NCBI GenBank assembly: GCA_036630325.1 | Contig: CP142732.1 | Coordinates: forward strand, 682,001-746,000 | DNA from: Vairimorpha necatrix | Lineage: Eukaryota | DNA length: 64,000 bases | Reading direction: 5' to 3' | Shown: positions 1 to 63,887 of the stretch, piece by piece | How positions within the stretch are numbered: position 1 is the first letter of the stretch | Layout of the letters: the number at the start of each line of letters is the position of its first letter | Program-made: the position numbers and the translations under genes | The notes under the pieces: model-generated | What the model saw: only the letters and a program-made list of their open reading frames with translations | Databases searched by the model: none | What the model was told of the DNA's origin: nothing

Positions 1-2
1 AA

Positions 3-3000
3 GTGGATGATACACGTCATAAAGAAATTTCGCGTGGAGATTATGTGGATGTAAAAGCGATTAGCTGCAAGGACCACGATAGAAAGATTTGGACTTCTAA
101 AAGGAACAAAGAAAAGAGATGTTTTATTTGCGGAAAGAAAGGCCATACAGTAGCACGGTGTAAATTCAATAGTTACCGTAGAGATATTAGCGAATCCAAG
201 AAACCCCAAGAAGAAGAAGGATAAAATAAGAAGATGGATGTAAAGGAATTTATTTATAATTACTCTGTTGCAAAGGTCAAGGATGATAGGACTACGCTCA
301 AAGAAGCTCACTGAATAATTCGGAAGTTAAATTTAAAGCGCTCATCGATACTGGTGCTGATATAAATCTAATTAGACCAGAGATTTTGCCAAATAAAACC
401 GTTGTTAATCGTTCTAAACAACAGCTTAGGGCAGCCAATGGATCGAAAATAAGGATCATTGGAGAAACAGTAGTTAAAATAAAAATTGAGGGAATGATAT
501 TTGAAGATAAATTCATTATTACTAGGGATATCACAATTCCCTGCATTATAGGAAAGGGGTTGCTCAACATGTACAAGATAAATTTAAAATTTGGAAATAA
601 CAAAATGGAAATTGAATCTGGACTCTTGGCAAAGGGAAAAGCCATAGGATATCATAAAATTATCACAAAGGATGATAACCCAATACTATTTCAATTATAC
701 AAATTGGGGGAGCAAAAGAGGATATTGCGTCCCAAATAGTGAAAGAGTATCTAAAACGTGGAATAGTTAGACATAGTGTAAGCGCATGGAGAAGCCCGAT
801 AATTATAGTCCCTAAAAAGAATGGAGACCACAGATTATGTGTGGATTATCGAAGATTAAATGATGCGACTATTAGAGATGCGTATCCAATGCCTAGAGTA
901 GAAGAGTTCATCAACGCTTTAGAGGGAGCAACATACTTTACTAAATTAGATGCTGAATCGGGCTATCACCAAATAGATATGGCGCCTTGTGATATTGAGA
1001 AGACAGCCTTTGCCTGTAGAGAAGGCTTATTTGAATTTACCAAAATGCCATTTGGACTTGTTAATGGCCCAGCTACATTTCAGCGGGTGATGAATGGTAT
1101 ATTGAGGGAATTTTTGTTTAAGTTTGTTGTAGTATACATGGATGATATACTAATCTATAGTAAAACTGAAGAAGATCATAAGAGAGATGTTCAAATGGTA
1201 CTAGAAAAGCTCAAGTCGGTAGGGCTTAAACTTAATAAGGAGAAATGCGAATTTAATAAGACCGAATTAAAAATTTTAGGTCATGTAATATCAAAAGAGG
1301 GAATAAGTGTGGACGAAGAAAGAGTTAGGAGCATTCAACAGTTACCAATTCCTAAAAGTAAGAAGAAATTACAATCTTTGTTGGGGCTGTATAATTATTG
1401 CTCTAAATTTATTAAAAACAGCCATAAAGTGGTTAGCCCACTATTCGATATAATAAGACTCAAGAATGAGGACGCTGATATTTTTTGGAAAAATGCAGAG
1501 AATGATGCAAAATACTGTAAGGCAATCGAAGAGGTAAAACAGGCAATGAAGAGAACAGCTTTATTGACAATTCCAAATTTAAAGGATAAATTTATATTGA
1601 CTACGGATGCATCGAATGAGGGAAGTGGGGCAACATTGGCTCAGATGGTCGGAGGAAAAGAAAAGATTATTTCTTATTACAGCTCTTTACACTCCAAGAC
1701 AGAAAAAAACTATTCTACTACTGAGCAAGAATTGCTAGCAGTTATAAAATCGATTCAAAACTTCAGGGAATATTTATTATTGGGGAAATTTACGCTAAAA
1801 ACGGATCATCAAGCTTTAAAATATTTGTTTAAGTCTAGGAATGTAAAAGCTAGGTTGGCTAGATGGTCATTACTGCTACAAGAATATGATTTCGACATTG
1901 AATATATTACAGGACCATCAAAACATACAGATCACCTAAGCAGAGATTTTTAAAACAGGAGGAGATAGTTTCAGAAATAAGTTCAATACAAAGGAAAATA
2001 GTTAAAAAAGAAAGGACAATAGTGCTATTAAAGTTTTACCATGATTTATTAGGGCATGGATCAAAACAAAATATGAAATATAATATTGGTCGAAAATTTA
2101 CTTGGAAGAATATGAGTAGAGACATAGAAAATTATGTAGATAATTGTGAAATTTGTCAAAAAGAAAAACCTCAGAGAAAATTTAGAGATATTATACCATT
2201 AGTAACAAAGACAATAGGAGAAATTTGGGAAGTAGACATAGTAGGGCCCTTGAGAGAAAGCGAGCAAGGATATAAATTTTTATTGACAATGATTGATCAC
2301 TTTTCGAAAATTGCAGAGGTGGTGCCGATTTATACAAAAGATATGAATACGGTTATTTATCTGGTAGATAAACATATAGTCAGGAAGTATGGTATTCCAA
2401 AGGCAATTCTATCTGATAATGGTAAAGAATTCAAAAATAATATCTGTGAGGAATATGCGAAATCCAAAAAATTCATCTGGAAATATGGTTCCCCTTATAA
2501 ACCTACAACCACGGGGCTTGTTGAGAGGTTTAACAGGACAATAGCCATAAAATTAAGGAAGGTTACAGAATTTGGGAAATTTGATTGGGCGAAATGTGTC
2601 CCTAAAGTAGTCAGAGCCTATATGCAATCATATCATAGGGCTATAGGGTGTGCACCAATAGAACTCTTAACAGGAATAGTTCCAAATAAGATAGATATAC
2701 AGGAAGGAATGCATCTAACAAAGGATAAGAAAGAGTTTCAGGAGCAGGCGATTAAGAACTTGGAAGTTTACAGACAAGAATATGACACGGGTAAACAAGC
2801 TAATTCTGTTGATAAAGAGGCCATTAAGGTGGGAGATAGAGTTTGGTATTATTTAATTTTACCGTTTAGAGGAAAACTCGAACCAAAATGGGAAGGAAAA
2901 GGAGTGGTAGTAGATAAAAAATTTCATTCATATAAAGTTTTATTAGATGATGGAAAGACTGTTACAGCAAGCCGAAATCATGTTAAGCTTTTAAAGGAGG

Positions 3001-3005
3001 GGTAG
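3..3005 (+). pseudogene. gag-pol polyprotein split into four ORF pieces (3-224 gag, ~290-739 protease, 739-1953 RT/RNase H, ~1955-3005 integrase)
   Basis: Domains are consecutive but in different frames, with shifts near 230, 720 and 1950. Confidence 0.85.
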
Positions 3006-3115: not shown

Positions 3116-4161
3116 GTATATATGCTATTTTATTAAAAGTCCAAAGTCCACATATTGTAGTATCTTTCTTGTTATTTTTATCTGATATATTGTCTTTTAA
3201 AAAATTAAACTATTTAATAATGCTTTTTTGTTGCCACTAGCAATGCTTAAAAAGCATAAAACTTTTTTATAAATATAAATTAAAAAAACATTATGTTGTA
3301 TATCCTACAATAACCTACATTTATTTTGAGTTAAAATGCAAATTAAAATTTATTGCGGGGTTTCATAGTAAATATTACTGTTTGGTGCAGTGCAAGTTAA
3401 AATACTTACTTTTTGTATTTAAAAACTCAATATTATTTTGAGTCTGAAAAGGACATTTCCAGATATTAATAAATTAATAATTTAAAATTTTCTAAAATGC
3501 TCTAATACTTCACAAAATAATCTATAAACAGGATGCTAAAACCTTATGTAAAAGATTTGCTATATTTTATATTCTTAATATGTCTTATTTAGCTATAATT
3601 AGATATGAATTTATTTTGAATACAGAGTTTTTAATTTAGATACTTTATCATTACATTTATATTCCGTGAAATTATATTCTTATATTTATAGGCGAAAAAT
3701 ACGCCATTTTACTCTCCATTACTCAATACCAAGGCGGAGAATGCCTATAGAATAGTAGGCGCTACTTCATTTTCTTGCCCCCCCCCCTAAAAAAAACATA
3801 CATAAAAAGATACAAAATCGTGTTATTTTTCAAATCTAAACATTTTTTTTTTTTGAGGGGGGCAAGAAAATGAAGTTAAGGTATTTTTTGTCGATTTGAG
3901 ATTTTTTAAATGCCTCCTTCAGATTCCTCATTAAGGGGTTAAAAAAATTTAATTTTTTAATCCTTAATAAGAAATTTAAAGGAAGCTATTCGGGAGCTAA
4001 ATATCTGCGAAGTTGCTGCTTTAGGCACAATGAAGCAGCAATTGATTTTTTTTTAAATAATGGTCTTCTAAAAAGATCGATTGCTTGCAGACATTGTTCG
4101 ACATCAGAACGAACTGTTCTTATGAACATTAATGGATGTTCCGGCTAAATTGACGGTAAAG

Positions 4162-4431
4162 TGTCATGTCCTCAAAACCATGACATCTGTGTTTTACTGT
4201 GTTAAAACTTAAATCAGTAAAACACTGCCCCGAACGAATAGTCTAAGGCGGAGATCTCTAACGATCGGACATGAAACGTTGTGTTTCATAAATAAATATA
4301 AATAGTCCAAAAAAGTTAGAAGACACCGAGCATGAAGAGTAACTTTAATAACAAATCAAATAAAAAGAAATATAATACAAATATTTTAGAAATGTATTTA
4401 AAAAACGGAGATATTACTCCGGTTCATGTCA
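4162..4431 (+). repeat. 5' LTR (270 bp)
   Basis: Direct repeat of 6708-6977. Confidence 0.95.
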
Positions 4432-5252
4432 TTTTGAATTCAAAGACATTAAATGAACAAAACGAAAAACGAAATAACGAAGATGACTATATACAAGTCA
4501 AAATCAAAGTTCCAGACTCGGACCTGGAATTTACGAAGAAATTAAAAATAATAAAAAACATCGAAAAATTCGATTTCATTCCTTGGTTTAAGGTATTTGA
4601 AGAAATAGCCACACAGAACAAATGGAATGCTGAACAAGGCATCATGATACTACGAAATTTAATTACTGATCGACGCCTAGAAGCGGATATTTTCATTACA
4701 GATGCAGCAACAACCAAAAGAAACTTAATTAAACATATTTTTGAGCAAGATGCTAAAGAAATGTTGCAAGAAGCCTTTAAGGTAAAACAAATAGATTTTC
4801 TTTTTATAGAAAACTATTATGAAAAGATTTACAACAAGATAAGTATCTATAGCGCTTATTACGAAATAAGCAAATCGGAATTTAACAGACATTTAAGCGA
4901 ATGCTTTTATCAAGGGTTAGGAAGAAACTCTACGTTTGAAATAATAAAACATAACTTAGGCGAGAACGTCTTAAATGCTTATAATCACCTAAAAAATATT
5001 GAGAAAATGATTCGAAAGAAAGCAGAAACTAAGAAAATAAACAAGGTGTCTAATGACGAGCCAGTATATCAAGAAAGAGAAGGATCATACAGTAAAAAGT
5101 TTTCAAACAAGACGAATAACCCAAGATCTTCGTATATAAATAAATGGTGTTCTATACACAAAACACTAGCCACGACACCAAAGACTGTTATTACAATAAA
5201 GACCGACAAAATGAAAATAAGAAGAAAGAAACGAGAGAAAATCTTAAGATAA
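4332..5252 (+). CDS. Gag-like protein; frameshifts into the PR-IN frame near 5160
   Basis: First ORF of the LTR element, ATG lies inside the LTR; ends in the first half of a zinc knuckle (WCSIH). Confidence 0.7.
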   Translation: MKSNFNNKSNKKKYNTNILEMYLKNGDITPVHVILNSKTLNEQNEKRNNEDDYIQVKIKVPDSDLEFTKKLKIIKNIEKFDFIPWFKVFEEIATQNKWNAEQGIMILRNLITDRRLEADIFITDAATTKRNLIKHIFEQDAKEMLQEAFKVKQIDFLFIENYYEKIYNKISIYSAYYEISKSEFNRHLSECFYQGLGRNSTFEIIKHNLGENVLNAYNHLKNIEKMIRKKAETKKINKVSNDEPVYQEREGSYSKKFSNKTNNPRSSYINKWCSIHKTLATTPKTVITIKTDKMKIRRKKREKILR

Positions 5253-6697
5253 TCAAAGAACCAATAAAAGTAATAAATGGAATTGAATTAGAAGGTTCAA
5301 TTGAAAAGAAAGAAACCAGATTTTTAATCGATACTACAGGTGCCACAAGAAATTTTATTAGTAATAAAAAGATCAAAGAATTGAAATTATCACCCATTGA
5401 AGATGTGGAAATCCAAACAAAATTTGCCAATGAGCAAAAAGAAATAACTAACAAAACAGTACTTGTTAGAATAACATTAAAGAATCTAATGAAAGAAAAA
5501 TACGTAAGATTTTATATATTAAAAAACAACAGCGATGATGTAATATTAGGAAATGAATTCCTAGTCGCAAATGAAGCAATAGTAAATTACAAAGAAGGAA
5601 CAATTTATGTAGGAAGTGAGAGATTGAAATTTCTACATAACGACGAATGTTGCGAATTAGACGCAATGTTATTTGAGAAAATGAATGTGTGCAAACAGGT
5701 AGATGAATGTGCATTAAAAACAGAAAATAAAAAGAACTTTAAAAAAGATGAAAAAGAAAGAATTTATATTGACAGAAAAATGACTAAAGAATTTATTAAA
5801 TTTGTCCACGAATTGTCGGGACATTGCGGGCAAGTAATCATGTATTTAAACTTAAAAAGATGGTACAACATCATAAACATTAGAACAGTTATCCGCAAGA
5901 TATGCAATCAGTGTATCGTATGTAAAGAAAACAAGGATTTTAAACAACAGAATCTAGAAAGAAATAAAATAGATAGCAGTGCACCATTTGAAATAATAAG
6001 CACAGATATTTTTGGTCCTTTTCTCCTGGAGGAGTTTGAGGGCGACTCTCTAAACCATAAGGGTTATATCTTGACCATAACCGATGTGTTTTCGAGATTC
6101 ACGAGAATTTGGTTTGGTGAGAAGTTTAGGAGTGAGGAAGTTATTATGTGTTTAAACGAATGGAGTGATGATTTTGCGAAGCCTAAAGCGCTAATTTCGG
6201 ACAATGGTCCGCAATATAAAAGTAAAAAAATGAAAGATTATACTAATAAAATACAAATCGAACATCGTCTAATACCGATATATTACCCCCAAAGCAATGG
6301 AATTTCAGAACGTATAAATCAAACAATTGCAGAAGTGCTGAGAATGAATATAGGAAAGAATATAAAACACATTATTATGCAAATTGAACATCGGATAAAT
6401 AATAATGTTAATACCACACTGGGAATTGCGCCTAGAGAAGCAATTTATAAGAATAGTTTTTATGACATTGAGAAAAGGGTTAATGTGCCATTTTTGCGAA
6501 ACATACCTGCAGTTGAAGTGAACTATAAGCGACGTATCGCAGTAAATGACATTGTATACTTAAAAAATTATAGCAATAATAAACTCGAGCGGAAATACTA
6601 TGGGCCGTTTAAAGTTATGGAAATCGGTAAGAAAGGAAGTTGGGTTCGACTTAAAGACATGCCCAACTGGGTTCATATTAAACAGTTGAAGCTGTAG
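5144..6697 (+). CDS. Aspartic protease fused directly to integrase
   Basis: FLIDTTGATRNFIS and ILGNEFL protease motifs, then HELSGH...CNQCIVC, STDIFGP, ISDNGPQY, SNGISER and YYGPF; no YxDD motif. Confidence 0.88.
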   Translation: MVFYTQNTSHDTKDCYYNKDRQNENKKKETRENLKIIKEPIKVINGIELEGSIEKKETRFLIDTTGATRNFISNKKIKELKLSPIEDVEIQTKFANEQKEITNKTVLVRITLKNLMKEKYVRFYILKNNSDDVILGNEFLVANEAIVNYKEGTIYVGSERLKFLHNDECCELDAMLFEKMNVCKQVDECALKTENKKNFKKDEKERIYIDRKMTKEFIKFVHELSGHCGQVIMYLNLKRWYNIINIRTVIRKICNQCIVCKENKDFKQQNLERNKIDSSAPFEIISTDIFGPFLLEEFEGDSLNHKGYILTITDVFSRFTRIWFGEKFRSEEVIMCLNEWSDDFAKPKALISDNGPQYKSKKMKDYTNKIQIEHRLIPIYYPQSNGISERINQTIAEVLRMNIGKNIKHIIMQIEHRINNNVNTTLGIAPREAIYKNSFYDIEKRVNVPFLRNIPAVEVNYKRRIAVNDIVYLKNYSNNKLERKYYGPFKVMEIGKKGSWVRLKDMPNWVHIKQLKL

Positions 6698-6707
6698 GGG
6701 GGCAGAC

Positions 6708-6977
6708 TGTCATGTCCTCAAAACCATGACATCTGTGTTTTACTGTGTTAAAACTTTAATCAGTAAAACACTGCCCCGAACGAATAGTCTAAGGCGGTGA
6801 TCTCTAACGATCGGACATGAAACGTTGTGTTTCATAAATAAATATAAATAGTCCAAAAAAGTTAGAAGACACCGAGCATGAAGAGTAACTTTAATAACAA
6901 ATCAAATAAAAAGAAATATAATACAAATATTTTAGAAATGTATTTAAAAAACGGAGATATTACTCCGGTTCATGTCA
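6708..6977 (+). repeat. 3' LTR (270 bp)
   Basis: Direct repeat of 4162-4431. Confidence 0.95.
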
Positions 6978-6982
6978 TAAAG

Positions 6983-7707: not shown

Positions 7708-8871
7708 AAATTTTAGAACAGTGTAAGTTGGAATAAAAAAAATTTCTTCTAAATAATTTTTTTTTTCTAGGGGGGGGGCAAGAAAATGAAGTAGCGCCGA
7801 ATAGTAGTCTATATCTACAGCATTTCTCGGTCACTTAATTTATACCATGACAAATATTACTATGCTTTTTACAATCAATATACAAGATTTGACGAAGATA
7901 TAAATATTATATTGATGATCTATAAGCAATACAATAAATTTTTTACAAGGAAAATTTTGTGTAATGTCATAAAAGAACCAAACAAATGAATTACAACTGT
8001 TGAAAATGTACAGAAAGACTGTTTGTTATATTTTACATTTCTATAAGAACTAGGCAATTTTGATACTTTACAAGACATTATGTTATTTGAAAAAAAAAAC
8101 AAAATCCCCAAAGTATCATAAAGCCACGGAAACAGTATATTATATGGCCACTAAATGTAATTATATGCTTGCACATGATTATATAAGGCGACACTGATCT
8201 GTATCTTCTTACAGTTGTGTAAGCACATTGAATTATTATGCCTAAAGAATTATAACAACTTAGACCAGTAATAAATAGCTACGAACAATTTAAGATACGA
8301 TTGGGAGTTAAGAATCAATTACAAAATAATGCATAACAAGCCTGTGCACTATTTGATTTAGAAAATTATAAGTCTTAACAAAATCATGCGATAGAAATGA
8401 AAATAAGAATAACCATGACTTTCTACCAACACAGGTAAAACCCCCTAGTTAATCGAAGCATCCTATTACATTTATGTATTTACAAGGGCGGATTGAGATT
8501 ATTTTATCACACCCACGAAGAAGTTTCCTCTTTAATCTCCGACTGAGCATTATACCGAACAAAATTCCCTAAAAAATTTAATCACCACTTGTGTCAAGCA
8601 GACATGGATTTGATAATGTTGACGTAAGATATTTTACATAAGAAGACTAAATTATGCAATTTTCTCTGCCTCATCTTTTAAAAGAGAAGAATAAATTTTC
8701 TCCGTTGAAAATATTGTAGCACACATAGGTTGTTTAAAACAAGAATATTATTTATTCTGATATTTGGTTCTTTAAAATCATTTTTTTTTAGGTTATGTTT
8801 TCACTGGACCACACCTTTGTAAAAAGTATATAAATAATATTTAAGTGTAATCAAATATATTTATTTTTCAT

Positions 8872-39496: not shown

Positions 39497-41104
39497 GGTG
39501 ACCGGAATTTTCGTCCCGGTGGTAGGGGTTAAAAAAATAAAAAAATAAAAAATCTCGGTTTTTTATTTTTTTAACCCCTACCACCGGGACGAAAATTCCG
39601 AAAAAAAAAATAAAAATAAAACTTTAATATTTCAATAATTTCAAAGACAAAATCTAAACCAACCCCTTCATCCACAGTTTTGTTTAAAAAATTAGCTAGC
39701 CGAATCTCTTTTTCAATGTATTTTTGTTTACGTTCAAAAACATGATTTAAAATTGTTTGTTGGATTATCTTGATTCGCACTATATCTTCTTCATCCTTTA
39801 ACTTGCTCACTAATAGATAAAAACTGTATCGACTTGTACCAAATGTGTTTTTAAAGGTATTATGCCAACCTTCAATCGCATTATTAGTTCTTGGAAAATC
39901 TATATCCATTTTATTTCTCGTATGCCACAAATTCGGCGGAAAACGACATCCTAAATCAATATAATTTGTAAAGAAATAGGCATATAACTCAGTCAAGCAT
40001 TCAGGGAAATTTCTGTCTTGTTTTAATTCCAAAAAAGTAGACAATATTTCGTCATATTCAACATATGCAAGTGCCGTAAGAGACAAAACAAATTTTTTCA
40101 CCATAGGTGAACATGTGTAAACAGAAGAAAGTCCTGAACTTTTAACACGTCTATCAATAGCCTGGGCTAAGTGAAAAAGACAACCCGAAATTTGACAATC
40201 CGAGAAAATTATTGAAAATGCTCTTATCGCAGCATACTCAAAATCGGGTTTTATCAACCTTGGGTTGAGCTCTGGAAACCTTCTCTTTAACAATTGAAAC
40301 AAAAAACAATAGGTTTCAAAACTTTTATCTTTTAAAATTGCAAATATAATCGGAAATACATGCGCTTCACGGATAAAACTAATTGTGTAAAGTTGATAAT
40401 ATGGAATTGGAACCACCGTAAAGGTCCCATCCATCGCCCACATGTCATATAGAGCCAGTTTTCCCATAGCTGAATCTGTATAAAAAACTATTATACTGTC
40501 ATTGGGTTTATCACTCCCGCAATTTTCAGGCCCATATCGATACCATTGTTCGCCTGTATGACTGATTAATTAATCAGCACATAAACCCAATGTTTGGTTG
40601 GCGTATGGTTTTGGATTTAAGAAATTTAGCCTAGCTTTCCTTAATATCCTCGCAATAGGCTCAATAGGGCCTATTGCGGCGATTGTTTCTTCACCAGCTC
40701 TTCTTAAGGAAGAAAAAAATGTTTCTAGAAGAATCTTTGCCAGAGATAATTTCCCGTTTCATTTTATCTATTTTATTCTTCCTACAGACCTGTTCAGGAT
40801 TTGGTTCATGATTATGAGGCGAAGAAATAATAAAGGATTCGAGATTATTGACGTAAACAATACTACTAATGGCCTTGGCATTACAGCTTCGTACAATGCA
40901 GCGCCACTTTATAGTAGTATTGTTGATTCTTTTTTTCTCGTAAATATATAGATTTTCATCTATTATTTGGTCCATATTTCTTTTGCTTTTAATGATCCTT
41001 TTTGTCCCGGTCATAGGGGTAAAAAATAAAAAAAGAAAAAAGTTCGTTTTTTTTATTTTTTAATTTTTTTAACCCCTATGACCGGGACGAAAAGACCGGG
41101 TACC
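39497..41104 (-). mobile_element. Mutator-like (MULE) DNA transposon
   Basis: 9-bp TSD GAAAATAAG at 39488-39496 and 41105-41113; imperfect TIRs GGTGACCGGAATTTTCGTCCCGG / GGTACCCGGTCTTTTCGTCCCGG. Confidence 0.92.
39571..41014 (-). pseudogene. MULE transposase (FLYWCH-like zinc finger plus DDE), disrupted
   Basis: WRC...C.A...HNH in 40691-41014; DGTF, DFE, GCLFH and TNNAIEGWH in 39571-40467. Confidence 0.88.
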
Positions 41105-41607: not shown

Positions 41608-42716
41608 ATGAGAAACCTAAATGTCAGAGAAGAACTTGAGGAATATCGTACAGAAGAATCATTTGTCGAGATAGAAGATGAAACGCAGTCTTCTACCCCA
41701 ATTAAAACCAGGAAGATGATTACGAGGTCGATAATCGAAAGTTTTCTTTCGTTACTCGACACTGGTATGAAAGTTATTTATATGGAAGTTGCTTTAAATC
41801 TCAGTAAGTCTAACGTCAAACGCCCATATAAAAGATATCTTACGAGAGAATTTACTAACCTTTCAACTTTTAAGAAGGCAGGACAAAAAAAAAGAGTGAA
41901 TCTTTAAAGACATTTTTATGGTTATATATATTATTGCAACGGAAATAGCCTTGATTCCTTGTCTATATCTTTATTATTTATCCGATAAATTGCAAAATGT
42001 AAATTCCACGGGACATTACTTTATGTCAACTGTTTGCAGACTTGTTAAAAAATAAGGGTATAGTTTTAAACCCCCCCCCCCCCCGACCTTGATTCCACTA
42101 AGCAGAAACAGTCCTCAGAACAAGCTGTTAAGGTCTCAATATGCGAGAGTAATAGATATCATATCAAATGATAATTTAAATTTTCTCGAAGAACCCGGTT
42201 TAAATCTGCACCTTAACAGTACTTTTGGTTTTTCTTTAAGAGATACTAAGTGTTGTGTAACAGTCCGAATTCGAAAGGGACTAATGTTTCTTTAATGTAT
42301 GCTATAAGCGTTAAAGGATTATATACGCATAAAACTAAAGTCGAAAGTTTTAAATCGATAGATTTTGTCGAATTCATTAACAATAATGACCTATTTGTGA
42401 GCAAGAGGAAAACAGAGTTATAATATTGGATAACGCATCTATACAAAGAACAGCCGAAGTAGCTGTTGCTCTTAGAAACAAAGGATACACTCTAAAACTT
42501 ATCCCTCCATATTCTCCACAACTAAACCCCGCCGAGGAGTTTTCTAACAGTTTAAAGTCCCAAGTAAAACAGAGACCTAGACCAACAACCACTCCTTTGT
42601 TAATTGATTGTATTGAGGACGTGTTGGACACAGAAGTATTCGTCATAGATGGTTACTTTTCTCATAAGAGAATTTATCGAGAAAGCTCTTGTCAATGCGG
42701 GTTTTTTCTGAATTAA
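41608..42716 (+). pseudogene. Tc1/IS630-type transposase, fragmented
   Basis: LDNASI and PPYSPQLNPAEE motifs; multiple frameshifts. Confidence 0.85.
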
Positions 42717-42861
42717 TGAAATTAAAAATTTTAATTTAAAAACTTCTAAGATGTTTTCATTGTTTGCCATGTAAATATTGATGTTTATATCTTTATCTTT
42801 ATCATTATCTCTTCTTTACGATTCAACTATATAAATAAATTATGAAAAAAATAAAAATAAA

Positions 42862-45800
42862 TGTGATATATTTGTATAATTTCTATCCCCATTATGATAA
42901 ATAAAGACATGGGGGCGATACCGAATCGTCAGTTTACAAGTGTGGACTGTGGTCTAGAGGCCAAAAAGTTAATAAAGGAAGTTAGAAGAATAATGTATAG
43001 GTTGGAGATGGAGGAAGTAGAAATCAGTTTGTGGAAGCAGAGAATATTTATGGAAGGAAGTGAAGAAATAAAAAATTTCATGGTAGAAAGAATTAGTAAA
43101 GAGGACGAATATTATAAAATAATTGAGAAATTAGAGGAGGAAATATGTAGAGAAGAAAGAACTAAAAAAGAAGAAGAAAATAGGAGAGAACTTATGGAGG
43201 TTATAGCTGAGAATGTTAGAGAAACTGTGAGAAAAGAAATTCAAGAGAAAGATTTAGTTTTAAGGAGTACAGTACAAGAAATAAGAAATAATAGGAATTG
43301 TTTTAATTGTGGTAAATTTGGCCATATGGCTAGGAACTGCTATTTAGGAAGGAACAATAATCAGAAAAATAATAAAAAGTTTAATAAGTACTTAAATTTA
43401 GACGAAAACCAAAGTTGTAGTAGCAGTAATGATAATAAAGAATATAAACCAAGTGGAAAGACAAAACGAGTTAAGTTAAAGGAATGTAATAATAGTGATA
43501 GAAGACATAAAGAAAGAATATATGCGAGCAATAAAGAGACGAAAAGAAGATTACTGAAGAGGGAATTTACGTTGGAAGATCTCAAAGCGGAATATGAAGA
43601 AGTTTTTAAACAAGGAGATGAGGTTATAAGTTATTGTACATTAGAGAAGTGTAAGATAGATACTCCAGAGGGTAAGAAGATAGTCAGAAAGGGACAGACG
43701 ATCCCACAGGCTTTGATCAAACAGACTGAGGAATATATTAATGATTTAGAAAATAGAAAAATTATAAGAAGATCGTCTTCGGAATGGCGAAACCCAATAA
43801 TAGCGATACTTAAACCAAGTGGTGAAGTAAGAGTAGTTAGTAATTTTATAGGGTTGAATGATTTAGTCGAGAAAGACCCGTATGAGCTAACGAATATGAG
43901 AGAAATAATAAGAGCTACGCAAGGGTCGATAATATTTACTGTTGTTGATTGCAAAGAAGGATTTTACCATTTTGAAATCGAAGAAAAAGATAAACATAAG
44001 ACGGCGTTTGAATTTAATAAAAAAGTTTACGAATGGAATAGTATGGTGATGGGATACAAAAACTCCCCACAGATACTACAGAGAACGATGAATATGATTT
44101 TTGAAGATTTGCGAGGAAATGGTGTTGAGGTATACATGGACGATATAGTAATACATGCCAACAATAAATGTAAACACGATGAATTAGTAATAGAGGTTAT
44201 AGAAAGAATTAAGAGAAATAAAATGAAATTAAATATTGGGAAAATACAGTTTAGACAAGCGGAAGTAAAATTATTAGGTGTGACGCTGAATGGAATAGAC
44301 ATGACGGCCGACGAAATAAAGAAAAATGAAGCCTTGGAGTATCCGGATCCAAAAACTTTGACGGAATTGAGGAGGTTTCTAGGATTGACTGGGTGGTTCA
44401 GACCATTTATAAAAGATTATGCCGGGCTGACGTTGAAAATGACAGATAGTTTGAAGAAAAATGGCAATTCGTGGAAATTTACGGAAGAGATGAAAGAGGA
44501 ATTTACTAAAATGAAAAATGTTTTAAGAAATATGGGAAGACTAAGATTACCGGACTATAATAAGGAGTTCATACTAAGAACAGACGCTAGCAATTTGAGA
44601 TTGGGTGCGGTGTTACTTCAGAAGAATGAGAATGGGGAATGGGTTGCTATACAATGGGCATCTAAAAAGCTAACACCTACCGAAATAAGATATGGAATAT
44701 CAGAAAAGGAAATGCTTGCGATATATTGGGGCATTGATAAATTTAAATACGAGTTAAGAGGTAGGAAATTCAAGATAGAAACGGATCACAAAGCACTGGT
44801 GGAGATAAGAAATAAACCGTTTTTTTAATAATAACAGAATAAATCGCTTAATCGAGAAGATACAGGAATATGATTTTATCGTTGAATATAAAAAACCTGA
44901 TGAGATGGTGGTAGCAGATGCGTTGAGTCGAATAAATATGGAAGAGGATATTAAAGAAATGAAAAATAAAGAGCGAACAATCAAGCAAACAGAAGGTAAA
45001 TGGAAAGCACATGTTTCTTCCGAGAATGGAAAGCAATATTGGCAATTTGACTCAGGACGTAAAGTTGAAATACCACCTGAGAATATAAGGAGACAATTAA
45101 TCCAAGAATATCATGAAAAAGTAGGCCACAGATGCATGACAAGTGTTTATTATGCAATGAGAGAAGAATACTATTGGCCAGGAGTAAAGAAAGAAATAAA
45201 CGAGGTTATAAAACAGTGTCAGAAATGTCAGATATATAACAGGAAAAATATGGGTGGTTGTGAATTTGTAGATACGTCGAGATACATAGAGAAGGTTGCA
45301 TTAGATTTGATAGACTTTAGAAATTAGAAGAAATATGTTTTAGTTGCTATCGATTATTTTACACGTAGAGTATGGGGAGTAGTTATAAATAACAAGTCAA
45401 GTAATAATGTTGTTGGATTTTTGAAAAGATTATGTGAGCAAGGGAAGAAACCAGAAGAAATTATTACAGATAACGGAAAAGAGTTTATTACGTGGAATTT
45501 AGAAAATTTTGTAGAGATCTCGATATAATACACCGACAAGTAAGTATAGAAGCGCATAGAAGTAACGGAAGAGTAGAGCGTGTTATAGGAACTTTGAGAG
45601 AAAGTATTTTAAAGTCGGATGCGAAAACTTTTGAAGGTAAAGTATATAAAAGTATCGATGTATATAATCAGAGCTATCATACGGGAATAAAATGTACACC
45701 ATTAGAAGCGACTGAAGATAAAACTGGAGACGTAATGCTTGAAAATAGCCCTTTAGGGAAATATTGTAATAGGTTTGGAAAAGGAAAGATCGAAAAATTT

Positions 45801-46079
45801 AGCAAAGGTCAATTGGTAAGAATAGCTAAACGAGAAAATGTGGCAGGTGTTAATAAGTATGAAAAAGGAAGATTTTTGGATACAGGAAAAATTGTTGAAA
45901 AGTGTGGAAAAGATTCTTATATTGTAAAACTTAGTAATGGTAGGCTTGTGAAGAAGAGACATTATGATCTGAAGGGTATGCTTGGGGTAGATGTGAAAAT
46001 TAGATGAGACTAACCGTCTTGAGGGGGGGATGTGATATATTTGTATAATTTCTATACCCCATTATGATAAATAAAGACA
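42862..46079 (+). mobile_element. Compact Ty3/Gypsy element (3218 bp) with 48/49-bp LTRs and no protease
   Basis: LTRs at 42862-42909 and 46031-46079 (TG...CA, one indel), TSD ATAAA, TGG-starting PBS at 42910, PPT GAGGGGGGGA at 46021-46030. Confidence 0.93.
42894..46007 (+). pseudogene. mini-Gag-RT-RNase H-integrase polyprotein, disrupted
   Basis: CFNCGKFGHMARNC, YMDD, TDAS, HHCC, TDNG and SNGRVER motifs; frameshifts near 44825 and 45490 and a stop at 45325-45327. Confidence 0.9.
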
Positions 46080-47925
46080 ATAAATTTTATAACAAGGGGT
46101 CTATAAAAATGAAACGAGGTTTTTATAAAAAATAAATGAGTTGTCTTTTAAAATTTAACAAGGGTTCTATAAAAATAAAATGAGGTGTCTATAATTATGA
46201 AACAAGATGTCTATAAAAATGAAATGGACTGTAAATTAGAACCAATAGATTTCTAAAGTCTCGATTTTGATATCCGACAGTTACTTATTAAGTACCAGGT
46301 CCATCTACGGCCAGCCTGCAAGGAAAGACTATACCTACCTAGATCCGAATTTGGTAGAGGCCTCATAAGTATCGAATATAGAAGCGAAAATATGCTTCTG
46401 AATATTTATAAAACAACAGATGAGTATAGAAATAGCTCACTAAGACGAACAGCGATACTTAAAGTAGAGGCAGAGAACAAATCGCACTTGTTTACAACTA
46501 ACGAGTATATAAAGATTAGGTATAGCTTTGTAGGAGAGATAACCCAGAAGATGCTAATATAATCCCCCAAAAACGCTCTACAACAAAATTGACATAAGGA
46601 CAAACCATGGAAAGTTGTTTAAAGCTAGGAGTAATGATTTAGTAAGCATTAGGGACTCTTCTGACTGGCTGGTTAAGGAAACAATCAGGCCAGATTCGAA
46701 GCAATTTACTGCTATCTACAGAATAGAAATATTTTCTGTTGACAAGTGGGACAATGTCCCCATTGTGGATCTCATAGGAAGACCGTGAATCATTTAGCTA
46801 CCTAGTGTGATCGAATGTTTGGTTTTGATTATATGAAAAGACACAACGAGGTATTTTGTTGCATTTATCTCTTACTATGTATTTATATGGGTTTAAGAAG
46901 GCAAAGAAATACATGAACACTCGGTACAAGAGATCGTGGGAAATGATCGTGCAGAATAAGAGTAGATACGAGAATTTCCACTAATACAAATGTGACCCAT
47001 AATAATCCGGATATTCTTGTATTTGACAAGACGAATAAGAAATTTTAATAGTTGAAGTTGGTATAACCAACCCATATCGACTTATTATAGTCGAGAATGA
47101 AAAACTAAGAAAATATGGACTTCATGCAAATGAACTGGGACTAATACATAAATCTCGGACAAGAATAGTTCCTAATGTAATGACATGAGATGGAGTGGTG
47201 ACCAAATATCACAGAAAGTACATCAGGAAGCTGGAAATCCAACCCTACTTGGAAGCAAACATCCAGTCTATTGTGATTAAGAAAATATTAGAATCCACCT
47301 TGATGGAACGACGACTAGGATACGATCAGCAAGATGCAGGGAAGAAGTAGTGGCTAGAGCTGTAAGCACACTAGAGAATATGGCGACTGTTAAAGAAGTG
47401 GTTTCGGCAAAGGGAAATGGAGCTGAAAAAAGTGAAGTTGGAAAGTATTAATAATTCCACAGAAACCAAAGCCTGTAAAGAGCTGAATCTTATGACGATG
47501 CCGGGGAAAAATGTGCTATGAATATCTAAGCTTAATGATAAATTGGCTCAATAAAACTTTAAAATTTCTAAGTTTTGAATGCTTCTTAGGTAAAAACCCC
47601 AAATATCAATAGCCCTTGAACTCAAAACGGTTATTAAGAAACATAAATTTATTTATTTGATCAATTTATGGTAAATATTAAATGATGTTTTATATATCAT
47701 TGATGAAAATTTATACTTCCAATAATAGCACATATAATTCATCGTTTAATAGAATAAATTGATCTTAAATACTTATTCTCGTAAAAAAAGTACCATATTA
47801 TTATATCAAAATAAAGATTATCTTTATATAGTTCTTTGATGTAGAAATTATTGCAAAAAAAATCAATTTGTATCAGTAATGATACAGCTAGATTATTGCA
47901 AGATCCAAGCTTTACAATGAACAAA

Positions 47926-59956: not shown

Positions 59957-60617
59957 GTTTTGTGATTTTTTTAATTTTTAAAACAGCTTGAGTTTTTCTA
60001 AATGTTTTGTGTTCAATTTCCAATGTTTTGCCTAATTTTTTTCCAGTCCAATTCTTTTATTGTTTTTATGATGGAATTGTACTTATTCGCCTTGCATACA
60101 CTAAAGATTTCAGATTAGTACCATAAAAGAAGCATGAAAAAAACGAGAATTTAAATGACTAAAAGGGTCTAATGTGAAACGTAAACATAAATTAGTGATC
60201 AAGAAGGGCTATTCTAGAACATAATGGGATGATGACTAAAGAAACTTTGGGGCAGCAACCGAAAAAAAGTATCTTAATCTGTATAAATATTAGCTTAATA
60301 AAGTTTTTTGCTCAGGTAACCTATAAATAGTTTACCGCTTTAGTATGCACGAATTTTTATATTAATATTGGTGTGAGCCAATAATCTTAAAGGTTATTAC
60401 GATATATATATGCTATTAATTGTTATTAAATAATTATGCCAAAATCGTTTTTAATATGATTACTCTCGAGGGCTGAAATAGTGCATTGAATAAGAGAGTT
60501 GATATTGCTTACCGGCAAAGAAGTACAGCGGAATATATTCTTATAGTTTTCATAATTTAGGTAAAAAGCATCATAAAAGATGAAGGCCTCTTATAAATTG
60601 AATTTTATATTATAATA

Positions 60618-63600
60618 TGTAGGGTTTAGAACCCTTAATAAATAAATGGTTAACATGGCGAACACAAGGATGAACAGGGAAACAAGAGAGTCCCGTAGTC
60701 AAGAGGCTAGAACATTAGAGAAAGAGGCAATTAGGATAGATAAGAGACTAAAGTTAATATTGAAAGTTGAGAAAGTTGAGTGGAAAGATGTTATGGATTT
60801 GGCATCTGCGAACTTGCAGGATTATATTTTTGAAAATTTTTGTGACGGAAGGAGCAGTTGGGAGGAAATTTATAAAGGCTTACAAAAAGGAGCAGAATTT
60901 GAGAGAGAGTCAGAAGAAAGACAAGAAATGATTAAAGAGATTATGGATAAAGTGTTGAAAGAGTTTAGGGAAGAAAGAAAAGAAAATCTTAGGATGTATA
61001 GGAAAAGAAGAGAAATCAGAGAAACTACAAAATGTTTTATATGTAAGAAAGAAGGGCATTACGCTAGAGAATGTCATGAAAGTGTAGCTGGTAGGGAAAA
61101 ATATAAAATTAAAAAGGAACAAGTTTTACAGAAAGAACCAATTATCAACAATGAAGGGAAAAGATGTAAAACAGTAAATAAGTTAGAAAATTTAATTGAA
61201 AAGTATCCGGAAGTTTTTAAAGAATCAGAAGAAAAGATAAAATATCTCACAGGAGAGAAGTGTCCAATAAATACTAAGCAAGGTGAAAAGGTTGTGAAAA
61301 GAGGGCAGAATGTGCCATACTACCTTAGGGTGAAATTTGAGGAGTACTTGAATAAGTTGGAAAATAGAGGGGTTATAAGACGTTCCAAAAGTGAGTGGAG
61401 GAGTCCAATAAGAGCACTTGAAAAACCAAATGGGGACGTAAGATTGGTAAGCAATTTGATGGCGTTAAACGATTTGGTTGACAAGGACCCGTACTCACTA
61501 CCGTTAATTAAGGATATTATGAGAGCCACACAGGGGTCAAAAGTATTTACGGTTATCGACTTAAAAGAAGGGTTTTATCATATTGAGATTGAGGAGCACC
61601 ATAAGCACAAAACAGCATTTGAAGTGAATGGTCGAGTATACGAATGGAATAGTATGGTTATGGGGTTTAAGAATTCGCCTCATATAATGCAGAGAGTAAT
61701 GAACAGAGTTTTAGATGAATTCAGAGGTAAAGGCGTGGAAGTATATATGGATGATATAGTTATTCATGGTAAAGACGTAAGAGTGCATGACGAGTTACTA
61801 GAGAGGGTAATTAAAAAGTTTAAAGAGTGTGGGTTGAGAATAAACCAAACAAAGATACAATACAAAAAAGATGAGGTGATGTTGCTGGGAGTAACAATTA
61901 ATGGGGAGGTCATGGGACCGAATGAGATTAAAAAGCAGGAGACATTGGAATATAGAAAACCTGAGAATGTTAGAGAGTTAAGAAGATTTTTAGGACTAAC
62001 TGGTTGGTTTAGAGACTTTATTCCCAACTATGCGTATAGAACAGTAAGGCTTACTGAGGCTTTAAAGAAAGATGTTAAGTGGAATTGGACGGAGGATATG
62101 GAAAGAGCTTTTGAGGATATGAAGCAAGGCTTGAGAGATATGAAAAAGTTGAAGATTCCGGACGGAAAAAAGCTATTTAGAGTAAGAACTGATGCGTGTG
62201 ATACGGGGATCGGAGCAATTCTATTACAAGAAAATAAAGAGGGTGAGTGGATTCCGATACAATGGGCATCGAAAATGTTGACTCCTACCGAGCGAAGATA
62301 TACGATAAGTGAGAAGGAGATGTTGGCGGTGTTTTTTGGAATAAAGAAGTTTGAAAGTGATTTGAGAGGAAGGAAATTTCATTTGATGACGGATCATAAA
62401 GCATTAGCAGAGATCAGAAATAAGCCATACTTCAATAATAACAGAATAAACAGATGGGTAGAACAGATACAAGAGTTTGACTTTACAATAGAGTATGTGA
62501 AAGGGGAGTTGATGACAGATGCAGATGCGTTAAGTAGGCAGTATGATCAGGTAGAAGTTTCGGATGAACAAAAAGAAAAGGACAACAAGAGAAAAGAAGT
62601 GATCGAAAAACAAATTTTGGGAAAAAAGCAGAAACATATTAAAGAAAAGGACGGTAAACAGTATTGGGAATTTTCCACAGGTGAGGTGAAATAGATATTG
62701 AGCCTAGATAGTAGAGAACATGAAATAACAAGAGTACATGAGGAGTTAAACCATAGAGGTGTCAAAGGCACTTATTATAACATTAAACAAAGATGGTATT
62801 GGCCTGGTATGAAAGATCATATTAATAAGGTAATTAAGAATTGTGAAATATGTGGGATTAACAATAGGAAAAACACAGGAGGATGTGATTTCGTAGTAAC
62901 TAGAAAGAAATTGGAGAAAGTGGCGTTGGATTTAATGGACATAGGTGGAGAGAATAGGTATGTGTTACTGGGTATTGATTACTTTACTAGAAGGTTGTGG
63001 GGTTCGAATTTGAGATGTAAAGAGAGTAGTGAAGTTATAGAGGTATTACAAAAGTGGATAAGGGAAGATGGATTTCCAGAGGAATATGTGACAGACAACG
63101 GAAAAGAGTTTGTAAGTAATAGATTTAAAGAATGGTGTAGTATTAATGATATTAAACATAGGAAAGTGGGCTTAGAAGCTCATAGGAGTAATGGTAGAAT
63201 CGAGAGATGCATCAGAACTATAAGAGAGACATTGATAAAGCAAAATGATGGGAATATTTCTGAAAAGATAGAAAGAGCAATCAAAGGATATAATAATACA
63301 CTACATACAGCAATAAAATGTACGCCGATGGAAGCGTGGAGAGATCAAACTGCTGAAGTTATAATTGAAAATGATGAAAATGGAAAATATGCTGGTCGGT
63401 TCAAGAGAAGACACAGAGAGACATTTACAGTAGGCCAAGAGGTAAGAATCGCTAGGAGAGAAAATTTAGGTACACGTGCGAAAACAGACAAGGGAAGATT
63501 CACGGGACGCGGAAGGATCGTAGCTATAAGTGAAAATGATTCATATATTGTGAGACTACTGGATGGTAAAATTGTTAAAAAGAGGCATTATGATTTGAAA

Positions 63601-63692
63601 GAGATAAGGAAGAGTTGTTTAGAAGATGGAGAGACTACCCGTCTGGAGGGGGGATGTAGGGTTTAGAATCCTTAATAAATAAATGGTTAACA
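60618..63692 (+). mobile_element. Compact Ty3/Gypsy element (3075 bp) with 38-bp LTRs and no protease
   Basis: LTRs at 60618-60655 and 63655-63692 (1 mismatch, TG...CA), TSD TAATA, TGG-starting PBS at 60656, PPT GGAGGGGGGA. Confidence 0.94.
60646..63666 (+). CDS. Single-frame mini-Gag-RT-RNase H-integrase polyprotein with one in-frame TAG at 62692-62694
   Basis: Both ORF pieces are in the same frame; CFICKKEGHYAREC, YMDD, TDAC, HHCC, TDNG and SNGRIER motifs. Confidence 0.88.
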
Positions 63693-63887
63693 TAATATAC
63701 AAAAAACCTATATTCAGCTATAAGAGCTTTAAATTTCTGCTCCTGAATTTTTTTCATTTTTTATTACCGGGGTTGGATTATAAGATCCATATATAAAAAA
63801 GATTATGGATCTTATTTATAAGTGGATCTTTTCTTTTGACATAAACTATTTGAAATTTCTTCTTAAATTTTTTGAATCTTTACCCCC

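Follow-up and report, generated by a model that had tools for sequence, protein, structure and literature searches.

A clade of microsporidian Ty3/gypsy-type elements with mini-LTRs, a short Gag-like N-terminus and no detectable protease, represented by two copies in Vairimorpha necatrix

It is a standard premise that long terminal repeat (LTR) retroelements need a protease of their own and a capsid shell in order to replicate. For microsporidian Ty3/gypsy elements, the main text of Parisot et al. 2014 (PMC4202319) describes a single polyprotein open reading frame (ORF) and not separate gag and pol genes, and the passage of PMC2474625 that cites Xu et al. 2006 gives 'nearly all' N. bombycis families the order Gag-protease-reverse transcriptase (RT)-RNase H-integrase. 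Here we analyzed a stretch of 64,000 nucleotides from Vairimorpha necatrix (GenBank assembly GCA_036630325.1, contig CP142732.1, positions 682,001 to 746,000 of the forward strand), referred to below as the window, which holds two small LTR elements, E1 (42862-46079) and E2 (60618-63692). Our favored reading, to which we give a probability of roughly one half, is that they belong to a microsporidia-specific Ty3/gypsy sublineage that lost its retropepsin once, had its Gag cut to ~130 helical residues plus one CCHC zinc knuckle, and works as an unprocessed polyprotein. E1 is a decayed copy of that sublineage and E2 a nearly intact one.

The N. bombycis Nbr families and the groups of PMC4202319, as far as these sources describe them, share with E1 and E2 the host group and the order RT-RNase H-integrase. 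In the same sources the N. bombycis elements are described with a protease, whereas the clade of E1 and E2 is without one. The words 'nearly all' in PMC2474625 leave room for an earlier sighting of a protease-less family, and the word 'protease' is absent from the main text and one supplement of PMC4202319, the groups of which may or may not include the present clade. Full-text literature searches, which did not cover Repbase, found no description of a protease-less Ty3/gypsy lineage. In the literature searched, elements that join a DDE integrase to TG..CA LTRs of only 38-49 nt, a length of ~3.1 kb, no protease and a Gag of ~130 residues appear to be undescribed.

Tf1/sushi-type elements resemble E1 and E2 in having one frame from Gag to integrase, so that the Gag:Pol ratio is not set by a frameshift; Tf1 differs in encoding a protease on which it depends, in its full capsid-forming Gag and in the ordinary size of its LTRs. 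DIRS and Ngaro retrotransposons have no aspartic protease, and replication without self-processing therefore has precedent among retrotransposons. These elements use a tyrosine recombinase and have unusual repeats, unlike E1 and E2, whose integrase is of the DDE type (Pfam rve) and which have TG..CA LTRs and duplications of 5 bp. The ORF1p-type proteins of long interspersed nuclear elements (LINEs), built in many clades of a coiled coil and CCHC knuckles, are similar to E1 and E2 in their long helices followed by a CCHC knuckle, and also in the cis-acting ribonucleoprotein role that we propose for the E1/E2 polyprotein. However, ORF1p is made as a protein of its own, reverse transcription in LINEs is target-primed, and no sequence or fold match of ORF1p-type proteins to the N-terminus of E1 or E2 was found. 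The hepadnavirus P protein, a reverse transcriptase of several domains, likewise needs no proteolytic maturation to function; it differs from E1 and E2 in its separate core protein, its protein priming and its lack of an integrase. Elements of the TRIM (terminal-repeat retrotransposons in miniature) and LARD (large retrotransposon derivatives) type have no RT or integrase coding, whereas E1 and E2 encode RT, RNase H and integrase. Their sequences mark both elements as Ty3/gypsy by descent, with a domain content that departs from the textbook definition, and we hence regard them as a variant.

E2 is a bounded LTR retrotransposon of 3075 bp, of which a single frame spans 3021 bp (98% coding). 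Its features are as follows.

60613..60617 and 63693-63697, + strand: 5' and 3' copies of the target-site duplication TAATA, read from the flank sequences
60618..60655, + strand: 5' mini-LTR, 38 nt, TG..CA, a direct repeat with AATAAA-like signals; the first ATG of the frame (60646) lies inside it
60656..60669, + strand: primer-binding-site (PBS)-like tract directly 3' of the LTR, with TGG at its start, translated (M-A-N-T-R), of uncertain extent
60646..61029, + strand: Gag-like N-terminus, residues 1-128, with AlphaFold2 helices 14-39, 46-52, 55-65 and 72-127
61030..61074, + strand: CCHC zinc knuckle, residues 129-143, nucleocapsid-like (Pfam zf-CCHC 2.9e-4; HIV-1 NC 4.8e-4)
61075..61203, + strand: linker, residues 144-186 (43 residues), one helix and then a disordered stretch, with no protease detected
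61204..62691, + strand: RT-RNase H, with YPEVF at residue 187, RVT_1 at residues 259-418, YMDD at residue 367 and RNase H at residues 481-611
62692..62694, + strand: in-frame TAG between RNase H and integrase, copy-specific, the frame being open there in relatives
62695..63666, + strand: integrase (H2C2 zinc domain, rve core and C-terminal part; Pfam 8.2e-15 and 9.6e-11), its stop codon within the 3' LTR
63645..63654, + strand: polypurine tract GGAGGGGGGA, seen in the sequence, translated and abutting the 3' LTR
63655..63692, + strand: 3' mini-LTR, 38 nt, a direct repeat

The frame opens within the 5' LTR, crosses the PBS-like and polypurine tracts and ends within the 3' LTR. It runs for 682 codons (60646-62694) to the in-frame TAG and resumes as 62695-63666, with one stop in 1006 codons and a polyprotein of ~1005 residues. 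The catalytic motifs of RT and RNase H (Pfam E-values 2.7e-31 and 1.7e-30) and the integrase domains are all present. The other frames hold short ORFs only, of at most 116 residues, and because the long frame fills the element end to end, no gene is hidden upstream, downstream or in another frame.

E1 is likewise a bounded LTR retrotransposon and is laid out as follows.

42857-42861 and 46080-46084, + strand: target-site duplication ATAAA, read from the flank sequences
42862..42909, + strand: 5' mini-LTR, 48 nt, TG..CA, with the ATG at 42894 inside it
42894..43298, + strand: Gag-like N-terminus, 135 residues, with AlphaFold2 helices 18-39, 44-54, 57-66 and 74-133
43299..43340, + strand: CCHC zinc knuckle, C136-C149 (Pfam zf-CCHC 7.6e-05)
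43341..43592, + strand: linker, 84 residues, low-complexity, basic and partly disordered, with no protease detected
43593..46007, + strand: RT-RNase H-integrase from YEEVF on, split over the frames 42867-44828, 44809-45327, 45328-45528 and 45474-46007
46021..46079, + strand: polypurine tract (46021-46030) and 3' mini-LTR (46031-46079, 49 nt), seen in the sequence

The 3' LTR of E1 differs from the 5' LTR by one substitution and one extra base. The coding region has several frame breaks, and the integrase part falls into several frames. In both elements the Pfam domains RVT_1, RT_RNaseH and Integrase_H2C2 plus rve follow one another in the Ty3/gypsy order, a TGG-initial tract stands after the 5' repeat and a G-rich purine run before the 3' repeat. 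No tRNA complementary to the PBS-like tracts was found, and the single tRNA in the window (Arg-TCT) does not fit. The TG..CA repeats are much shorter than usual for Ty3/gypsy, and in mini-LTRs of 38 and 48-49 nt, U3, R and U5 must share fewer than 50 nt. The junction of LTR end and PBS, CA-TGG, itself makes an ATG, and the PBS-like and polypurine tracts therefore get translated; a MANTR start is also found in several relatives. E1 and E2 are 48% identical at the amino acid level over 628 aligned residues, and are therefore separate families of one group and not recent duplicates. They are the two copies of this kind in the window, and no solo LTR was seen there.

Several searches for a protease were made. 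No retropepsin family of Pfam was found in E1 or E2 at E<=0.1, and none was among the 25 families listed of the 66 that matched 34 family rows at E<=1. A custom protease hidden Markov model (HMM) was built from seven seeds, five of them taken from outgroup proteins and two from the elements of the window that bear a protease. At E<1e-3 it matched 21 database proteins, five of them the seeds, and both window comparators, likewise seeds; it found no match in P0001-P0057, E1 or E2, the best value being E=0.066. In P0058, P0059, P0068, P0081 and P0087, the nearest outgroups, Pfam gave weak protease matches where the domain would be expected. Positive controls for protease detection were thus found in outgroup proteins, at window 5144-6697 and in the following comparator.

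290..739, + strand: retropepsin of the canonical Ty3/gypsy element at the start of the window, with ..LIDTGAD.. (Pfam RVP 1e-06; custom HMM 6e-32, as a seed)

No D-[ST]-G motif lies upstream of RT in E1 or E2, the sole instance being a DTG at residue 519 of E2, inside RNase H, and the motif is absent from the knuckle-to-RT linkers of all 34 family rows. Because the linkers are short, its absence is uninformative by itself. The linker, taken as the stretch between the final cysteine of the knuckle and the pre-RT motif, measures 35-86 residues in all 34 rows (43 in E2, 84 in E1), and the protease stretches matched by the HMM in relatives are ~73-116 residues long. AlphaFold2 models of the N-termini of E1 and E2, built with the family alignment, contain no beta domain and are all helical or disordered. 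Protease is very probably truly absent from the lineage.

An earlier note, made from the letters of the window and its ORFs, had claimed as much for both mini-LTR elements, and Pfam, the custom HMM and AlphaFold2 all bear it out in finding no retropepsin. It had also placed a pre-RT motif after the knuckle (YPEVF in E2, YEEVF in E1) with no D-[ST]-G between knuckle and RT, a charged, helical region of ~130 residues before the knuckle, and LIDTGA in the canonical element. All of these were recovered: the region measures 129 residues in E2 and 135 in E1 and is predicted to be helical, and LIDTGA is in the comparator listed above. Its 'short charged linker' describes E2 well and fits E1 less, the linker there being longer, low-complexity and basic. 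A divergent retropepsin fold in the linker, which the note had named as evidence that would overturn it, was looked for with AlphaFold2 and Foldseek and was not found.

The relatives of E1 and E2 place this loss in a wider context. The homologue set comprised 112 proteins, with named members from Nosema granulosis, Vairimorpha apis, V. necatrix, Pseudoloma neurophilia and Enteropsectra breve, and many of the homologues are uninterrupted ORFs of ~1000-1040 residues on contigs of 3.0-3.2 kb. In a tree of RT-RNase H with 90 rows, 25 low-coverage rows having been dropped, E1 and E2 fall inside a clade of 55 rows (SH-like approximate likelihood ratio test, SH-aLRT, 99), none of which has a detectable protease. 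In the tree it sits within a set of gypsy-type proteins that bear a protease, as do the rows just outside it (P0058/P0059, P0063 and P0068). Among the 53 database rows of the clade, 33 start with M and have at least 150 residues upstream of RT (156-364, median 213), and protease was undetected in every one of these full N-termini; the remaining 20 are N-terminally short and uninformative on this point. No longer family member with a protease was found, the 99 hits of 1195-3410 residues all being at most 36% identical. Clade members occur under at least four named microsporidian genera. On these comparisons, protease loss is a lineage trait and not a deletion in these two copies, and the lineage still looks mobile. 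The earlier note had treated the trait as a property of two elements, and in this it fell short of the whole microsporidian clade; its other proposed refutation, intact family members with a protease, found no instance among the 33 proteins.

DNA relatives were also recovered. The contig L001, an independent relative with 68% protein identity, has an open frame of 911 codons (2..2737, starting at residue 118), a polypurine tract and a 38-nt TG..CA end that resembles the E2 LTR and has the stop codon inside. Because the L001 frame is open, the TAG of E2 is specific to the E2 copy. A second relative, L002 (L002:3697-5000), is degraded. The whole of L001 and L002:3697-5000 sit on contigs filed as bacterial metagenome-assembled genomes (MAGs; Clostridium sp., Turicibacter sp.), and several of the protein homologues bear similar bacterial MAG names. 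The L001 and L002 contigs are probably mis-binned, the retrotransposon being eukaryotic and of microsporidian type.

The region before the knuckle measures 121-179 residues across the 34 family rows, and the knuckle residues C130, C133, H138 and C143 are invariant in all of them. The AlphaFold2 model of E2 residues 1-200 (predicted local distance difference test, pLDDT, 82.8) continues after the knuckle with a helix at 144-160, a low-confidence stretch at 161-178 and a helix at 180-191. The model of E1 residues 1-259 (pLDDT 78.4) follows the same plan, with a low-confidence, probably disordered stretch at 172-200. The N-terminal helices predicted for both elements include one of 56-60 residues.

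No gag family of Pfam was found on the N-terminus of E1 or E2, nor among the families listed for the 34 rows. In Foldseek the N-terminal models matched nothing in the PDB (E1 and E2) or BFVD at E<=1e-3, the only matches being weak ones to nucleocapsid knuckles; phmmer against the PDB sequences likewise returned nucleocapsid knuckles only. A search of E2 residues 1-190 with phmmer against 1.84 billion representatives gave 69 matches at E<=1e-3. Nine of these reached E<=1e-10, all short same-family fragments of 82-210 residues, most of the remaining matches covered the knuckle only, and no link to a known capsid emerged. Alignment of the family pre-knuckle profile with hhalign to the N-termini of P0058, P0063, P0068, P0076, P0055 and P0056 gave nothing significant, the best result being P0055 with P=0.013 over 49 columns. 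In language-model features the N-terminus was nearest to the Retrotrans_gag/Ty3_capsid clusters, at 0.89 when the knuckle was included and at 0.86 when it was left out, both below the 0.9 level. These likenesses offer a weak lead towards a Gag identity of the N-terminus. The short proteins P0113-P0121 (82-210 residues) cover the Gag-like N-terminus alone, several of them ending just past the knuckle; these could be pieces of copies in decay or else stand-alone Gag products. Two basal clade members, P0055 and P0056, have neither knuckle nor protease and show a capsid-like motif by eye, which hints that the protease may have been lost before Gag was cut down.

In 21 of the 34 rows the linker carries a basic patch, K-[KR]-x-[KR], which precedes the pre-RT motif by 8-30 residues; with shuffled linkers (1000 shuffles) the mean was 5.6 rows and the maximum 12. 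In E2 the patch lies 15 residues before the pre-RT motif, at window 61150-61170. We regard it as a candidate nuclear import signal, with a site for a host protease as the alternative.

In the mechanism that we favor, the ~1005-residue polyprotein would work without self-processing, as a ribonucleoprotein. The helices of its N-terminus, together with the knuckle, would bind the RNA of the element and act as its chaperone, for instance in tRNA annealing and strand transfers, a role nearer to that of a nucleocapsid or a LINE ORF1p-like ribonucleoprotein than to a closed capsid. With Gag and Pol produced 1:1 and left fused, a closed Gag shell enclosing Pol seems unlikely, an argument that draws on knowledge of retroviral Gag-Pol. 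The basic patch of the linker may act in nuclear import, RT-RNase H would make cDNA from a tRNA primer, and the C-terminal integrase would insert the cDNA with a 5-bp duplication. That no proteolytic processing is needed is a component of this reading that we would back at a little under even odds. It is doubtful, although conceivable, that the clade is the smallest self-sufficient type of LTR retrotransposon known (~3.1 kb, 98% coding), replicating through one unprocessed Gag-RT-RNase H-integrase protein without a closed capsid, in effect an LTR element that came by convergence to a cis-acting ribonucleoprotein of LINE type.

Several points weigh against the unprocessed polyprotein and the lineage that we draw around it. 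The step from a missing protease to an unprocessed protein is one that we infer from sequence, and in the Ty3, Ty1, Tf1 and retroviral systems cDNA synthesis depends on processing. Protease-bearing Ty3/gypsy elements are present in the same window, and in V. necatrix alongside clade members, so that help in trans is possible. Both window copies carry disabling mutations (one TAG in E2, the frame breaks in E1), and neither alone shows activity. The E2 LTRs are identical at 37 of 38 positions, a figure that gives no age because the LTRs here span just 38-49 nt. On the side of detection, the Pfam scan of the family rows shows only 25 of its 66 matched families, and the custom HMM is incompletely sensitive, since eight outgroup rows with long N-termini score 'no protease', two of them near the cut-off. 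In a 60-row tree of observable N-termini the label 'no protease' needs nine changes. As those eight outgroup rows also fail the HMM, we claim a single protease-less clade and make no count of losses elsewhere.

The protease-bearing elements of the window bear directly on the first alternative. The canonical Ty3/gypsy element at 290-3005 has its integrase at 1902-3005. The second, an LTR element at 4155-6978, measures 2.8 kb, has LTRs of 278 nt with 98% identity to each other, and encodes the following.

4320-5252: Gag-like ORF, no Pfam match
5144-6697: protease fused directly to integrase, matched by Pfam and the custom HMM

No RT or RNase H was found in this element or after it, and it must therefore itself depend on RT in trans. 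Its integrase is 27% identical to that at 1902-3005. In its content it is the mirror image of the protease-less E1 and E2. V. necatrix also has a protein, P0285, with protease and integrase and without an RT Pfam domain.

The alternative that survives best, although we consider it unlikely, is parasitic dependence, in which Ty3/gypsy elements of the same genome that bear a protease would supply the enzyme that cleaves the polyprotein, and perhaps the Gag that packages it. Two such elements lie within the same 64 kb, the need of the RT-less element for RT in trans points to possible complementation between elements here, and V. necatrix hosts the clade members P0036, P0037 and P0040 together with the protease-bearing P0285. 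Yet the trait is fixed across the 55-row clade and its genera, so that an obligate reliance would have had to survive the whole diversification, and the reading of E1 and E2 as defective borrowers is thereby weakened. The linkers vary in length and sequence and no conserved hydrophobic cleavage-type site was seen in them, and the protease-bearing window elements are just 26-35% identical to E2 in the shared domains. A bolder variant of our reading would have the clade and RT-less Gag-protease-integrase elements such as 4155-6978 form a two-part system, each filling the gap of the other.

Less probable still is that a host (microsporidian) protease cuts the disordered linker, for example at the basic patch, which would make a protease of the element's own dispensable. 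The earlier note had offered an unprocessed polyprotein, possibly without a capsid, or protease and Gag borrowed in trans; it was right that the protease is absent and Gag very short, while its list of mechanisms is inseparable by sequence and omits cleavage by the host. The low-confidence, probably disordered stretches of the linker (residues 161-178 in E2, 172-200 in E1) would suit such a cut, as would the positional conservation of the basic patch beyond that in shuffled linkers, but the patch fits a monopartite nuclear localization signal equally well. A second conserved site, between RNase H and integrase, is not evident. Moreover, dibasic-specific proteases sit in the secretory pathway, where the polyprotein is not expected.

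It is very improbable that E1 and E2 arose by deletion from ordinary elements with a protease and are now dead and non-autonomous. The mutations that disable both copies, and the finding of two copies and no solo LTR in the window, would agree with such an origin. However, the same architecture recurs in all 33 clade proteins with a full N-terminus, many of them in uninterrupted ORFs of ~1000 residues, and no protease-bearing parent is among the 99 longer hits. E1 and E2 are of like architecture at 48% identity, and E2 has a single stop in its whole frame.

Finally, a protease too divergent, or of a non-aspartic type, to be recognized is scarcely credible: retropepsins are short and fast-evolving and some outgroup rows escaped the custom HMM or nearly did so, but linkers of 35-86 residues are mostly too short for a fold of ~90 residues and are predicted to be helical or disordered in E1 and E2, no conserved catalytic-type residue stands out in the 34 rows beyond the CCHC ligands, Pfam does pick up weak proteases in the nearest outgroups where one would be expected, and an NPGP 2A-type skipping motif is absent from the 112 homologous proteins and from E2.

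Other features were observed around these elements. The 4155-6978 element is flanked by 44-nt inverted repeats (3753-3796 and 7760-7803, 89% complementary), which suggests that it inserted into a transposon of the terminal inverted repeat (TIR) type. An array of a 22-nt tandem repeat, of ~7 units (46090-46242), lies directly downstream of the 3' LTR of E1, and a Tc1/mariner-type DDE fragment (42390-42716, + strand) lies just upstream of that element. A zinc-finger ORF at 40691-41059 (- strand) looks like a FLYWCH finger by eye. The part of the window around E1, at 28.5% G+C, looks like a transposon nest.

Microsporidia are known for extreme genome reduction. If our reading is true, a diversified clade with intact ORFs and with neither a protease of its own nor a capsid shell would set the minimal protein set for LTR-type retrotransposition, namely a nucleic-acid chaperone, RT-RNase H and integrase on one chain. 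Such elements would offer a compact natural scaffold for studying the function of RT and integrase while fused. Annotation pipelines that demand a protease, or LTRs of at least 100 bp, will miss or misclassify them, and contigs of such elements are already within bacterial MAGs.

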